A stretch of DNA of 64,000 nt from Patescibacteria group bacterium (GTDB lineage Bacteria > Patescibacteriota > Patescibacteriia > PEXW01), in NCBI GenBank assembly GCA_041671325.1, contig JBAZBR010000001.1, forward strand, positions 327,126-391,125. Reading direction: 5' to 3'. The notes beneath the pieces were generated by a model that was given only the letters and a program-made list of their open reading frames with translations, ran no database searches and was not told the origin of the DNA. Positions 1,735-62,895 of the stretch are shown here, piece after piece (position 1 is the stretch's first letter; each line of letters begins with the position of its first letter). The translations under genes were made by a program, and so were the position numbers.

Positions 1735-3689
1735 ATTTTTTAAATAGAATAAAAGGTTTTTTTAAAACTTCAAAATCTGAAAAAGTTATAAGAATTTTGA
1801 AGAGGATATGGGCTTATGCCTGGCCACCTTTATTAGCAATTTTAGTTTTAATGCTAGTTTTCGGAATATTATATGGTCCAGGTTTCAAAACTATTTATCG
1901 GGAAGCCGTGGCAGGCCAAAAGGATTTGGAATCAGCCCAAAAACTGATTGTCGCTCAAGAGTTCGTGGCAGGTCAAGACAAATTAAAAACCGGAAAAATC
2001 CATTTAGAAAATGCCCAAACCAGAGTGAGAAAAATGAATTCCTTAAAAAAATTGCCTTGGGTAAAAACCCAAATTAATGCCATGGATAATTTATTGGCTG
2101 CGGGCATTTCCACGACCTCGGGCATAAATCGTTTAAGTGCATGGGCTGAGACTGTAGTCAAGCCTTTTAAAGTCGGTAAAGCTTTTAATTTAGGGGCTTT
2201 AAAACCTGAACAGAAAAGCTTGATCTTAAAAGCAATTTATGAGGCTCAGCCCGATTTGCAGGCAGCTAAAGCTTCTGTTGATTTAGCCATCACCAACATT
2301 GAACAAATCCCGAATACGGGCGTAGTTTCCCAAATTGCGAGCAAAGTTAAAACTTTCAAAGAATTACTGCCGCAGTTGCAAGAGGGTATAGCCATGGCAA
2401 TTCCCGCTTCAAAAGTAATCCCGCCTTTACTGGGTTATCCTGATCAGCAAAATTATCTGTTTTTATTACAAAATAATTCTGAATTACGGCCAACCGGCGG
2501 GTTTATTGGAACCTATGGGATTTTAAAGATTAAGGATGGCGAAATCCTCTCTTTTACTACTGATAATGTTTATAATTTAGATAACAAAGCCAAATACTTG
2601 AATATCACCCCGCCGCAACCTTTAATCCGTTATAACAGAACTAGCAAATGGTTTTTCCGAGATTCTAACTGGTCACCAGATTTTCCGACTTCAGCTCAGG
2701 AGGCCCTGAGTTTTTATCGGAAAGAAAATGGCCCAGAAAGAAAAATTGACGGTGTCATTGCCATGGATCCAGAAGTGTTTAAAAATTTATTAAATTTAAC
2801 CGGTCCGATTACGATAGGAAAAACTAAATTTACCTCGGAAAATCTAGTTGATGAACTCCAGTATTTAACCGGTTTCGCTTACGTTGATAATAAGACTGTC
2901 GATACAACCCAAAGGAAAGGAGTTATTGGCCAATTGGGTAAAATCATGATTGATAAAGTAATCCACTTGTCAAAAGATAAATATTCAAAAGCCTGGGTGA
3001 TTTTTAATAACGCGACCGAACAAAAGCATCTTATGCTTTGGGCGGCAAATACCAATCGTCAGTTAACGCTTGAACAGCTTAAATGGACTGGTTCGATCAA
3101 AGATCCAGTTGGCGATAATTTAATGGTGGTAGATGCGAATATTGCCAGTCTAAAAACCGATCCTGCCGTAAAAAGGACAATTACTTATGAATTAAAAAGG
3201 CAGGATGATCAGTTGATTGCCAATTTAACTTTAAAGTACGAAAATATCGGCCAATTGACCTGGAAAACAACCCGTTATCGGACATATACCCGTGTCTACG
3301 TGCCTTTAGGCAGCAAGTTAATATCCACCGAAGGGGAGATGTATGAATGTAATTCCAAAAAAGCCGGACAAGTGGATAAATTTGAGGAGTTGAACCATAC
3401 TGGAATTGGAATCTTTACCTGCGTTGAAATAGGCGCGACCAAAGAGCTGAAATTAAAATACCAGCTTTCACCGAAAATTTATGCTCAATTAGAGCAGGGT
3501 GAATATAATTTGTTAATCCAGAAACAGCCAGGCACTTTGGCAAGCAATTTGAATATTAATATTAATGTTGGCAAGAATATTAAAAGTTTAGTGAAACTTG
3601 AAAAAAATGAGAAAGTCAGTGGCAAAAATTTTCAAGCTAAAACCGATTTATCAGTAGACCGTTCGTATATTTTTAAATTAGAAGATTAA
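1731..3689 (+). CDS. Large N-terminally membrane-anchored protein, possibly DUF4012-like. Function unknown.
   Basis: 652-aa ORF with one N-terminal TM helix and no catalytic motif recognised. It sits in a co-directional run with the glycosyltransferases. The family assignment is inference. Confidence 0.6.
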   Translation: MNFLNRIKGFFKTSKSEKVIRILKRIWAYAWPPLLAILVLMLVFGILYGPGFKTIYREAVAGQKDLESAQKLIVAQEFVAGQDKLKTGKIHLENAQTRVRKMNSLKKLPWVKTQINAMDNLLAAGISTTSGINRLSAWAETVVKPFKVGKAFNLGALKPEQKSLILKAIYEAQPDLQAAKASVDLAITNIEQIPNTGVVSQIASKVKTFKELLPQLQEGIAMAIPASKVIPPLLGYPDQQNYLFLLQNNSELRPTGGFIGTYGILKIKDGEILSFTTDNVYNLDNKAKYLNITPPQPLIRYNRTSKWFFRDSNWSPDFPTSAQEALSFYRKENGPERKIDGVIAMDPEVFKNLLNLTGPITIGKTKFTSENLVDELQYLTGFAYVDNKTVDTTQRKGVIGQLGKIMIDKVIHLSKDKYSKAWVIFNNATEQKHLMLWAANTNRQLTLEQLKWTGSIKDPVGDNLMVVDANIASLKTDPAVKRTITYELKRQDDQLIANLTLKYENIGQLTWKTTRYRTYTRVYVPLGSKLISTEGEMYECNSKKAGQVDKFEELNHTGIGIFTCVEIGATKELKLKYQLSPKIYAQLEQGEYNLLIQKQPGTLASNLNININVGKNIKSLVKLEKNEKVSGKNFQAKTDLSVDRSYIFKLED

Positions 3690-5993: not shown

Positions 5994-6887
5994 ATGGAAA
6001 AAATTGGGCAGAAAAGACTAGAACAAGCACTTTTAAAAATATTAAAAAATAGAAATTTTGGTCATGCCATAATTTTTTCCGGTAATGACCAATTAGCCGT
6101 TAAGCAGGTTTCAAAATGGTTTGCTGAAATGCTTATTTGCCAGAAACCTAAGTTAAACAAACCATGCAATAATTGCCCGGCGTGCCTAAGCATTGCCAGA
6201 AACGAACAAACCTTAATCACAATTTTGAATCCTGAAAATCAGCATTATTCAGTTGAGCAGATAAGGAACCTGAAAAAAGACTTAGCTTTAAAAAATAGTT
6301 TAAATTTGAACCGAGCGGTAGTTTTAAATGAAATACAGTATTTACGTGATTCAGCCGCCAATGCCTTATTGAAGGTTTTAGAAGAACCTGGAAAGAATAC
6401 TTATTTTATTTTCACTGCTAATAATATATTAAGCGTTTTAAAAACCTTAAGTTCACGCGCTATTCATTTCATAATTCAACCAGTAGCCAAAACAGTTATT
6501 GAAAAAGCATTAAAAAGTAAAGATTTTTCTAAAAAAGACATAGAGCTAGCCTTAAAATTATACCCAGGAAAATTTCTTAAAGTTCTAGAATTGCTGGAAA
6601 ATACCGCAGATTTTGAGGAATTTAAAAAAGATTATTTAAAAATCAGCAAATTGTTGACTTCTAACAGATTAGAACGTTTGAATTTAAGCGATATGTTAAA
6701 TAAAAATAAAACCGACCATAACCAGAAGGAAAATTTTCAAAAATTAATTAATATTTTAATTGCCCAGATAAGGTTGGATCCGGGATATATGAAATATCTG
6801 CCAAAGCTTATGCATTCCCTTAAATTACTGCAAACCAATGCTAATCCTAAATTATTGTTTGAATCAATTTTAATCCAAATTCCATGA
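5994..6887 (+). CDS. holB: DNA polymerase III delta-prime subunit.
   Basis: Cys4 zinc module CNNCPACLSIAR and an AAA+ clamp-loader-like N-terminal half, about 300 aa. Confidence 0.75.
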   Translation: MEKIGQKRLEQALLKILKNRNFGHAIIFSGNDQLAVKQVSKWFAEMLICQKPKLNKPCNNCPACLSIARNEQTLITILNPENQHYSVEQIRNLKKDLALKNSLNLNRAVVLNEIQYLRDSAANALLKVLEEPGKNTYFIFTANNILSVLKTLSSRAIHFIIQPVAKTVIEKALKSKDFSKKDIELALKLYPGKFLKVLELLENTADFEEFKKDYLKISKLLTSNRLERLNLSDMLNKNKTDHNQKENFQKLINILIAQIRLDPGYMKYLPKLMHSLKLLQTNANPKLLFESILIQIP

Positions 6888-61924: not shown

Positions 61925-61942
61925 ATTTTAAGATAAAAGAAA

Positions 61943-61974
61943 ACGACCCGCACCATTGCTACGACGCGGGTCGT
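61943..61974 (-). terminator. Rho-independent terminator, possibly bidirectional, for the convergent genes.
   Basis: ACGACCCGC-N14-GCGGGTCGT perfect 9-bp stem. The minus strand is followed by TTTTCTTTTATCTT. The plus-strand T-tract is weak. Confidence 0.65.
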
Positions 61975-62000
61975 TGTTTACCTAAAGGACTAATTACTTG

Positions 62001-62594
62001 CTACTTTTGAAGTACGCCTGCCGGATTGTCGGCGTCCCAGATGCCATGGGCGATCCGGCGATAGCCCCAATGCCAGGAACCATCATCTTCCCGATAGAGG
62101 TGGAGGATATATTGCTCACCATTCGTTTCCTGCAGGATAGTGTCAAAAAACGATAGAAAAGTAATGCTCTTAGTGGCATATAACCATTTGAGTGTTGTAT
62201 GCCCTTCTTCCTGCCACAGGGTAATGAAGTCATTAGCACCAAGTTGAACATCTGTTGGTTCTGCCTTGACACGGCGGAGGTATTCTTCGCCATTGATAGA
62301 AGACTCTCCTTTTTTAAGGTAGTCTTTCGCTATTATTTTTTCGGCGTTTAAGTAACCCCTCGAATGTAGCTTTTCATAAATCACCCAGCCCTTCCACGAG
62401 AAAAGTTCCTCCGGGTTGAAAGATTTAAGCCGGAGAACGTGAGTGATGATGATTTCTGCAGATCCATGAAGGTAGCTTAGAATTTTCTGCAGCTGCTCTG
62501 ACTGCCCAAGAAGTGTAACATCATGAGCAGTGAAATTTTCTTTTTCCAGTCTTTCCATCAACTGATGGGACTGACCTTCTGAGTAAGAAGACAT
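62001..62594 (-). CDS. Hypothetical protein (about 197 aa), GC-rich.
   Basis: The start was placed at the internal Met (MSSYSEG) because a strong SD AAGGAGG sits 5 nt upstream. The ORF track extends to 62618. No family recognised. Confidence 0.6.
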   Translation of the reverse strand: MSSYSEGQSHQLMERLEKENFTAHDVTLLGQSEQLQKILSYLHGSAEIIITHVLRLKSFNPEELFSWKGWVIYEKLHSRGYLNAEKIIAKDYLKKGESSINGEEYLRRVKAEPTDVQLGANDFITLWQEEGHTTLKWLYATKSITFLSFFDTILQETNGEQYILHLYREDDGSWHWGYRRIAHGIWDADNPAGVLQK

Positions 62595-62654
62595 GTCTTC
62601 CTCCTTAGTTTGGCACATGTGCCGTTGTTTCTTGGCCAGAGGGCCACCACCTTG

Positions 62655-62781
62655 GTAGTCATAGCCAGAAAGTACTAATAAATATTATATGTCATGCTGA
62701 ACTTGTTTCAGCATCTCATTCTGTAGACCCTGAAACGAGTTCAGGGTGACAAGATGATAAGTGCCTTTTGGCTATGACTAC
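62655..62781. promoter_or_regulatory. Nested inverted-repeat element: a 13-16 bp outer inverted repeat enclosing two hairpins with shared CTGAA-N5-TTCAG arms. Overlaps a minus-strand TATAAT box.
   Basis: Outer arms GTAGTCATAGCCA (62655-62667) and TGGCTATGACTAC (62769-62781). Hairpin 1 ATGCTGAA-CTTGT-TTCAGCAT (62694-62714). Hairpin 2 ACCCTGAA-ACGAG-TTCAGGGT (62727-62747). Confidence 0.5.
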
Positions 62782-62895
62782 GCTGCTTTTTTAAAGTGCA
62801 AAATAACAAGGAAGAATATCATGGATTAACCGTTTTGTCAATGGACATCAGGGAATACTTAGCAAGTTTTACTGTACAAACAGCCTGTTTTTTAT

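Follow-up and report, generated by a model that had tools for sequence, protein, structure and literature searches.

A conserved stem-loop in the probable 5' leader of hypermutation target genes of Patescibacteria

In prokaryotes, the only systems known to hypermutate proteins in a targeted manner are diversity-generating retroelements (DGRs). Their density is especially high in Patescibacteria, in which the target proteins have no recognizable domains and no known function or regulation (PMC8144416). The DGR of the Bordetella phage BPP-1 has a target-site hairpin or cruciform beside its variable region (VR) (Guo et al. 2011, PMC3240598), and a set of candidate RNA motifs located near bacterial reverse-transcriptase (RT) genes, RT-1 to RT-19, is represented in Rfam (Weinberg et al. 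2017, PMC5737381). Here we analysed a stretch of 64,000 nt from a Patescibacteria group bacterium (contig JBAZBR010000001.1; this whole stretch is referred to as the window), in which a 127-bp inverted repeat (62655-62781) lies upstream of a gene on the minus strand (62001-62594). We conclude that the repeat, designated HP1, is probably the main stem-loop of a conserved 5' leader that precedes DGR variable-protein genes in Patescibacteria.

Similar to HP1, the BPP-1 hairpin is a conserved inverted repeat that is tied to a DGR target gene and in which structure outweighs sequence. HP1, however, is located in the 5' leader, ~650 bp from the expected VR, displays strand-specific G.U pairs and contains invariant base pairs; the candidate counterpart of a BPP-1-type hairpin following the VR is the structure at 61942-61975, not HP1. 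RT-1 to RT-19 are likewise structured RNA candidates that were found through retroelement loci but, unlike these motifs, HP1 goes with the target gene, is equally frequent when no RT is nearby, and reaches no Rfam threshold. Indeed the scan against known RNA families that an initial annotation of this DNA had proposed returned no family: at the gathering thresholds of Rfam 15 neither the window nor the leaders of 14 related loci had a match, and three leaders that were scanned by E-value yielded only miRNA-like hairpins (14-24 bits against thresholds of 44-120). A likeness of AUAGC...GAUGGUAGU to helices of 5S rRNA was rejected, as the 5S model had no match even at E<=10. Within the literature covered by our full-text searches, no RNA element upstream of DGR targets is described. 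We thus regard the HP1 leader as an RNA motif of a familiar general type, the structured 5' leader that acts in cis, for which we are aware of no earlier description and whose association with the hypermutation targets of Patescibacteria is new.

The conservation of HP1 is evident from the relatives of the downstream gene. Homologs at 33-56% identity share the sequence of the stem base upstream, on the gene strand, and in a close relative (L012) the outer stem is almost identical to that of the window, whereas the interior is entirely different. The components of the window copy are listed below.

62655-62781, minus strand: HP1, the main leader stem-loop; matched by covariance model R1, with a basal helix that covaries
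62761-62781, minus strand: basal 5' arm of HP1, GUAGUCAUAGCCAAAAGGCAC; aligns with 52 other instances
62655-62675, minus strand: basal 3' arm of HP1, GUACUUUCUGGCUAUGACUAC; aligned with the same HP1 instances
62676-62760, minus strand: lineage-specific 85-nt apical expansion of HP1, recognized by length comparison with the other instances

Across the family the basal helix of HP1 comprises 22 bp, with invariant A-G-C/G-C-U and A-U pairs, two conserved G.U wobbles and one conserved internal mismatch, while the apical part is variable; the consensus of the base is ..GCCAYAGCNRAAAG / CUUUUCUNGCURUGGC... In the window copy 16 of the 16 outer pairs are standard and, as in the family, there is an A.C at pair 14 and a G.U at pair 17. 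In a first alignment, in which 24 HP1 instances were aligned with MAFFT on sequence only, 92% of the cells were paired and compensatory changes were observed in 17 of the 22 pairs; none of 500 shuffles was as good, and partners that had been slid by 1-3 columns paired at 41-52%. A second alignment of 53 distinct instances, in which the window copy was included with its interior removed, revealed covariation in 19 of the 22 pairs, with 212 double-change cells compared with 69 in shuffles. Folding and covariation across relatives, which the initial annotation had put forward as a check, therefore uphold the outer stem as both conserved and covarying.

A covariance model (R1) derived from the 24 seeds was used to search both strands of 100 sources totalling 744 kb. 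The only match in the window was the element itself (62655-62781, minus strand; 38.4 bits, E 2e-6), and in ~58 loci a match was located ~50-100 nt upstream of the start of a family gene. Three matches were off-site, comprising an extra copy in L105, one in L087 that precedes another gene and a weak, partial match in L067 (216-244). In L105 HP1 occurs twice (2654-2706 and 3429-3479), 775 nt apart, and a recognizable family gene follows the second copy only. The HP1 of L087 (468-519) precedes a different gene, encoding 200 aa, with the family gene ~1.1 kb further on; the 200-aa protein has only its N-terminal region in common with one subfamily of the variable proteins. The HP1 consensus pattern had no match in the viral contigs of IMG/VR.

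The strand from which HP1 would be read is indicated by its non-canonical pairs. On the gene strand the alignment contains 139 G.U cells and 51 A.C cells, the latter being G.U pairs on the opposite strand, and 21 of these 51 occur at the one conserved mismatch. The conserved wobbles are a G.U at pair 17 in 41 of 53 instances and a U.G at pair 22 in 36 of 53, and at nearly every locus R1 scores ~10-20 bits higher on the gene strand. A near-consensus promoter (TTGACA-17-TATAAT, often with an upstream TG) ends 28-50 nt before HP1 in almost all of the ~58 loci. The predicted promoter of the window consists of a -35 element TTGACA (62841-62836), a 17-nt spacer and a TG-extended -10 element TATTCT (62818-62813), from which transcription would start near 62806. 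HP1 is 31 nt from this -10 element and 60 nt from the ATG, both distances being within the positional ranges of the family. The restriction of the G.U pairs to one strand, the variable distance between the arms and the presence of a promoter upstream thus argue that HP1 is best read as 5' untranslated RNA, transcribed from the minus strand, the strand of gene 62001-62594. The other features of the locus, in the order in which they would be transcribed, are as follows.

62813-62841, minus strand: predicted promoter of leader and gene, from the promoter scan; the same type occurs in relatives
62782-62806, minus strand: 5' segment of the leader with CUUUAAAAAAGCAGC; relatives have the motif CUUUAAAA or AGUUCUUUGA at the same place
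62625-62654, minus strand: linker CAAGGUGGUGGCCCUCUGGCCAAGAAACAA, with a GCCCNCUGGC-type box conserved in relatives
62611-62624, minus strand: predicted hairpin HP2, CGGCA-CAUG-UGCCA, just upstream of the Shine-Dalgarno sequence (SD), from the fold; the position is shared by relatives
62585-62606, minus strand: SD AAGGAGG (62606-62600) and predicted hairpin HP3, from the fold and from enrichment at family starts
62001-62594, minus strand: gene encoding a 197-aa DGR variable-protein homolog, from the family profile search and homolog loci
61942-61975, minus strand: G+C-rich 15-bp hairpin followed by a T-run, 26 nt past the stop codon and terminator-like

The gene, which the initial annotation considered an orphan, is in fact a member of a large family of DGR variable proteins of ~190 aa, for which a profile of the six closest relatives retrieved 3312 cluster representatives at E<=1e-3. 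It has a strong SD and corresponds to a hypothetical protein of a Patescibacteria metagenome-assembled genome. No match to Pfam or NCBIfam was obtained for the gene product or for 15 relatives, and an AlphaFold model from a 6-sequence alignment was too poor (mean predicted local distance difference test score of 47) to be searched for the C-type-lectin fold that carries the variable residues in DGR variable proteins. The related loci, almost all of which are from Patescibacteria, contain a direct repeat of the last 120-125 nt of the gene ~350 nt downstream. The two copies are 80-92% identical, and the mismatches are nearly all at adenines of the downstream copy (for example 19/19, 23/23, 18/18, 20/20 and 26/26). 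An RT gene is located ~400 nt after this template repeat (TR). The combination of a VR, a TR and an RT was found in 28 related loci and, with its adenine-specific mismatches, constitutes the signature of a DGR; in a further 41 related loci the gene stands alone, and neither TR nor RT is found within 3.4-4 kb. Patescibacterial loci whose targets lack recognizable domains fit the published DGR clade 2, which is restricted to this group and has targets of that kind (PMC8144416).

The VR of the window gene is expected near its C-terminal end (~62001-62130). At the 3' end (62001-62030), where the homing site of a DGR would be, the window sequence reads ...GGCGTACTTCAAAAG-TAG, compared with ...GCGTGCAAGT-TGA in most relatives. 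Hairpins of the type GACCCGC...GCGGGTC also follow the gene in L003 (5625-5663), L007 (1511-1552), L053, L063 and L074; the hairpin at 61942-61975 is positioned where DGR targets have their post-VR hairpin or cruciform, and it also resembles an intrinsic terminator. The interval between the stop codon and the hairpin or TR consists of short repeat units (CCTTTGGAC / GCTCTTTGA / CCTTAG; 61976-61998 in the window). Units of the same type are found just after the stop codon in L017, L034, L035, L037, L061 and L022, the last of which has about five tandem GCTCTTTGA units (~6565-6650).

To define the architecture of the leader, the 300 nt upstream of each homolog were folded. The order on the gene strand is promoter, ~30-40 nt of leader, HP1, linker, HP2, an A-rich stretch, SD and HP3, and the predicted length of the structured 5' leader RNA is ~210 nt. 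When consensus folding (RNAalifold) was applied to whole leaders only HP1 and one short linker helix were recovered, as MAFFT fails on the variable linkers. The T6 run that was reported to follow the element on the plus strand is present (62787-62792), and is the complement of CUUUAAAAAAGCAGC, and thus of the conserved A-rich leader motif CUUUAAAA. The possibility that the run belongs to an intrinsic terminator, or ends a small RNA encoded on the plus strand, was rejected. The terminator scan did not call it and the gap between stem and T-run is 5 bases; a terminator is also contradicted by the identity of the run as the complement of CUUUAAAA and by the wobbles, which favour the other strand.

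The family linker contains a small hairpin and a GCCCRCUGGC box, and the boxes ACUUGCG and GCCCGCUGGC are conserved and unpaired. The linker segment GGUGGU could pair with the 3' tail of HP1, and such downstream pairing is possible in many loci. A long-range partner for the ACUUGCG box was sought by eye; pairings with the HP2 tail fitted some classes but not others, and the idea was dropped. At the position of HP2, relatives have, by visual inspection, TGGCACATGTGCCA, GGTACATGTACC, GCGCTCATGAGCGC or longer GCAAC..GTTGC and GGAC..GTCC hairpins; its sequence thus appears to vary between loci while the hairpin persists.

The stem of HP3 (62602-62585 in the window) is 7 bp in length, and its 4-nt loop, CAUG, contains the start codon. 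A tight hairpin with AUG in its loop (at least 5 bp, loop of 3-6 nt) was present at 45% of 95 distinct family starts compared with 8.7% of 138 control gene starts from these loci (p 1.6e-10). This measure was used in place of a looser one, pairs that enclose the AUG, which did not discriminate (71% vs 66%). The stems are diverse (GAAGAC/GUCUUC, UUGAC/GUCAA, GUGGAC/GUCCAC and GUAGCC/GGCUAC) and covary with codons 2-3. The stem is built from the SD-AUG spacer and codons 2-3 (starts of L027-L106, for example L028 1995, L033 3989 and L072 3989), and residues 2-3 (Ser-Ser, Ser-Thr, Ala-Thr, Thr-Thr and others) vary in step with the untranslated spacer. The replicase operator of phages MS2 and R17 is a translational operator hairpin that contains the start codon. 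Similar to that operator, HP3 is a small hairpin that presents or occludes the AUG beside an SD, making repression by a bound protein plausible; in contrast with it, two further conserved hairpins lie upstream, and the two are unrelated in sequence.

The window copy of HP1 is unusual in its apical part. The outer arms, GTAGTCATAGCCA (62655-62667) and TGGCTATGACTAC (62769-62781), form a perfect 13-bp inverted repeat as described, with complementarity reaching 25 nt at 84%. The two inner hairpins, at 62694-62714 (ATGCTGAA-CTTGT-TTCAGCAT, 8 bp) and 62727-62747 (ACCCTGAA-ACGAG-TTCAGGGT, 8 bp), have the CTGAA/TTCAG cores and 5-nt loops reported for them, but the stem of the second is 8 bp and not 7, and their centres are 33 and not 34 bp apart. 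The TATAAT hexamer was also correctly placed, at 62684-62689 (attata on the plus strand), 90 nt from the ATG at 62594. Two occurrences of CTGAA-N5-TTCAG, both inside the element, were counted in the 64-kb window, where 0.05 would be expected. The fold of the 127-bp element is far beyond chance (z of -10.8 on the plus and -8.5 on the minus strand). The mutual complementarity of the two inner hairpins had, however, been overlooked, and the best fold is therefore a single rod of ~60 bp, with an energy on the gene strand of -54.6 kcal/mol compared with -49.2 kcal/mol for a Y-shape that retains both small hairpins.

HP1 is typically 48-63 nt in length, with longer copies in L012 (86 nt), L081 (87 nt) and L015 (100 nt), and at 127 nt the window copy is the longest of the 53. 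It thus lies outside the short-apical-loop range of 48-63 nt and is a length variant of the family. Its 85-nt insert, which holds both the twin hairpins and the TATAAT, replaces the apical loop and is unrelated in sequence to the inserts of L012, L081 and L015; the twin CTGAA-N5-TTCAG pattern was found in none of the 110 related loci that were fetched. On this comparison the twin hairpins are a non-conserved apical expansion and not the core of a three-way junction, and the TATAAT, being inside a lineage-specific expansion, would not be part of the conserved design. Of the leader RNA with a long P1 stem that the initial annotation entertained, the structured leader and its stem thus stand, but the RNA would be read from the minus strand, conservation is confined to the outer stem and the three-way junction is lost. 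Two Logan contigs that encode the identical protein (L001 and L002) both stop at the palindrome centre, 122 nt before the ATG, and the assembly of L010 stops within the 3' arm of HP1; the hairpin breaks independent short-read de Bruijn assemblies of the same or related strains.

What the leader does is suggested by its distribution. HP1 is as frequent in DGR-linked loci (17 of 28) as in stand-alone copies (22 of 41; p 0.63), and the R1 search of related loci identified no second HP1-like element near the TR or RT. It therefore appears to serve the variable-protein gene and not the retroelement machinery, and the most likely function of the leader is post-transcriptional control of variable-protein synthesis. 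The leader would be read from the minus-strand promoter (62841-62813) into the gene (62594-62001), and HP1 would be a cis-acting site of the mRNA at which a factor acting in trans is recruited, for which a protein or an RNase specific for double strands is the most likely candidate; the invariant pairs, conserved wobbles and internal mismatch of HP1, within about two helix turns, resemble the site of such a factor. HP3, located beside the SD, would restrict access to the start codon, and HP1, HP2 and HP3 would jointly set the yield of variable protein from a very strongly promoted transcript. The R1.1-type sites of phage T7 and the leader of lambda N are examples of 5' leader hairpins that are processed by RNase III. 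HP1 shares with these about two turns of mostly regular duplex, a conserved internal mismatch and a location near the 5' end of a strong mRNA. In contrast with the RNase III sites, HP1 has invariant base pairs, a feature that to our knowledge is not an RNase III determinant.

A more far-reaching proposal, which we consider possible but doubtful, is that the leader, with HP1, HP2 and the AUG-loop hairpin, represents a regulatory RNA class that is new and specific to hypermutation targets, and that senses a signal or binds a dedicated factor. That factor could be encoded by the DGR or be a protein involved in host interaction, such that the ultra-small bacterium would make its diversified binding protein only under defined conditions. 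If correct, this would be the first known layer of post-transcriptional control in any DGR system.

Several observations weigh against HP1 as the conserved leader stem-loop of a DGR target, or against the function assigned to it. About 40% of the family loci have no canonical HP1 at E<=1, and there other hairpins, or none, are present. No TR or RT was detected in the 64-kb window by tblastn and blastn, and the window copy may be a remote or decayed DGR target; together with the altered homing-site sequence, this suggests that it may no longer be diversified. The transcript, its 5' end and any processing are predictions from the promoter consensus, and the trans-acting factor is a proposal. The 3' tail of HP1 has an alternative pairing of at least 6 bp in 76% of own loci compared with 52% of cross-locus controls, which is not clearly above background; a switch of HP1 through its 3' tail is thus not claimed. 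Finally, the expansion folds better on the plus strand (-67.2 vs -54.6 kcal/mol), which may reflect the chance choice of transitions in a young palindrome, and the promoter scan identified a promoter-like CTGAAA-16-TATAAT within it, so the expansion may harbour a lineage-specific second function or an internal promoter.

It could be argued that HP1 and HP2 do not act on translation but modify RNA polymerase in a processive antitermination system that resembles the put RNA of HK022 in principle, leading to read-through of the post-gene terminator into the TR and RT. The hairpins are indeed promoter-proximal and conserved in sequence, and in many loci, as in the window, the gene is followed by a strong hairpin that resembles a terminator. 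Furthermore, 14 DGR-linked loci have no comparably strong promoter between the stop codon and the TR or RT, and the cassette may thus need the upstream promoter. It should be emphasized, however, that HP1 is equally retained on stand-alone copies, the window among them, which have no such cassette nearby. The leader bears no resemblance to any antitermination RNA in Rfam and the AUG-loop hairpin is left unexplained, making antitermination an unlikely explanation.

The presence of several covarying hairpins and of conserved unpaired boxes (ACUUGCG and GCCCGCUGGC), together with the capacity of the HP1 3' tail to pair downstream in many loci, could also indicate a riboswitch-type sensor, in which a small molecule is bound and HP1 is a P1-like helix that governs the SD/AUG hairpin. 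Conservation, however, resides mostly in a long regular helix rather than in a junction or pocket, the frequency of the alternative pairing does not clearly exceed that of the cross-locus controls, and RNAalifold recovers no more than HP1 and the short linker helix. As the downstream gene, in addition, suggests no metabolite, we view a riboswitch as quite unlikely.

The exclusive association of HP1 with DGR variable-protein genes, and the use by DGRs of a hairpin or cruciform beside the VR (PMC3240598), would be explained if the hairpin, as RNA or as a DNA cruciform, marked the target or recruited the RT. Such a cis element of the DGR is improbable, as HP1 is far from the expected VR, the conservation of G.U pairs on one strand favours RNA over a cruciform, and neither TR nor RT has an HP1-like element adjacent to it.

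The least probable explanation, with very little in its favour, is that of tandem operators under a dimeric repressor acting over the internal TATAAT, or of an insertion resembling a miniature inverted-repeat transposable element (MITE), in its weak form with only the 85-nt expansion as the inserted palindrome: the promoter-like sequence inside the element, the near-perfect palindrome of the expansion with its better plus-strand fold, and its absence from relatives are outweighed by an outer-arm spacing that ranges from 48 to 127 nt among relatives and cannot be reconciled with a dimeric operator, by the location of the conserved promoter upstream of the element and not within it, and by outer arms that are a family-conserved RNA helix and not terminal inverted repeats. 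The initial annotation had raised both ideas. The operator fails on the arm distance, on the promoter 31 nt upstream and on the conservation of G.U pairs on one strand only. A MITE is rejected for the entire element, which is single-copy within the window, shows no flanking direct repeat or target-site duplication, and in the 744 kb of related loci occurs almost only before the family gene, with the three off-site matches described above. Like MITEs and repetitive extragenic palindromic sequences the element is a long, near-perfect, intergenic inverted repeat at which assemblies break (L001 and L002); unlike them HP1 is single-copy within the window and locus-specific, and the covariation of its outer arms among distant genomes is that of an RNA helix.

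The leader, regarded as a means of post-transcriptional control, has implications for the biology of the hypermutated proteins. A strongly covarying leader with several hairpins, which is located behind a near-consensus promoter and is kept even on stand-alone genes, suggests that selection acts on how much variable protein is made, or when. The HP1 motif may be used as a sequence tag for DGR target genes that are far from their RT. The leader also offers handles for experiment, as a 52-nt RNA could serve in pull-downs, a defined RNA could be probed for its structure and the leader could be fused to reporters.

The related loci provided a number of further observations. The N-terminal 50-70 residues of the variable proteins are swapped between subfamilies (L007 and L011-L016 compared with the window), beginning MSSYSEGQ..., MSKDVSPSE..., MSDLTLDVG... 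or MGDKFVMS..., while the leader RNA and the C-terminal variable domain are constant across these subfamilies, which is consistent with modular recombination of the targets. The DGR cassettes (for example L017 6558-8458 and L022 6564-8438) apparently consist of target gene, TR and RT only; an open reading frame that was called in the interval from gene to RT overlaps with the TR and is probably not genuine, and no separate Avd-like accessory gene is evident. A scan of the window detected no tRNA or tmRNA gene. Among related loci, clusters of tRNA genes adjoin L034 (3230-3622), L104 (3000-5862), L037 (4747-4818) and L101 (2343-2608), in L101 a group I intron is also present, ~1.2 kb upstream, and L022 adjoins a tmRNA gene; these neighbours may hint at insertion hot spots. 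In L008 (985-2047) a homolog (P0004) is followed by a transposase pair of the IS630 type, comprising helix-turn-helix and DDE_3 proteins.

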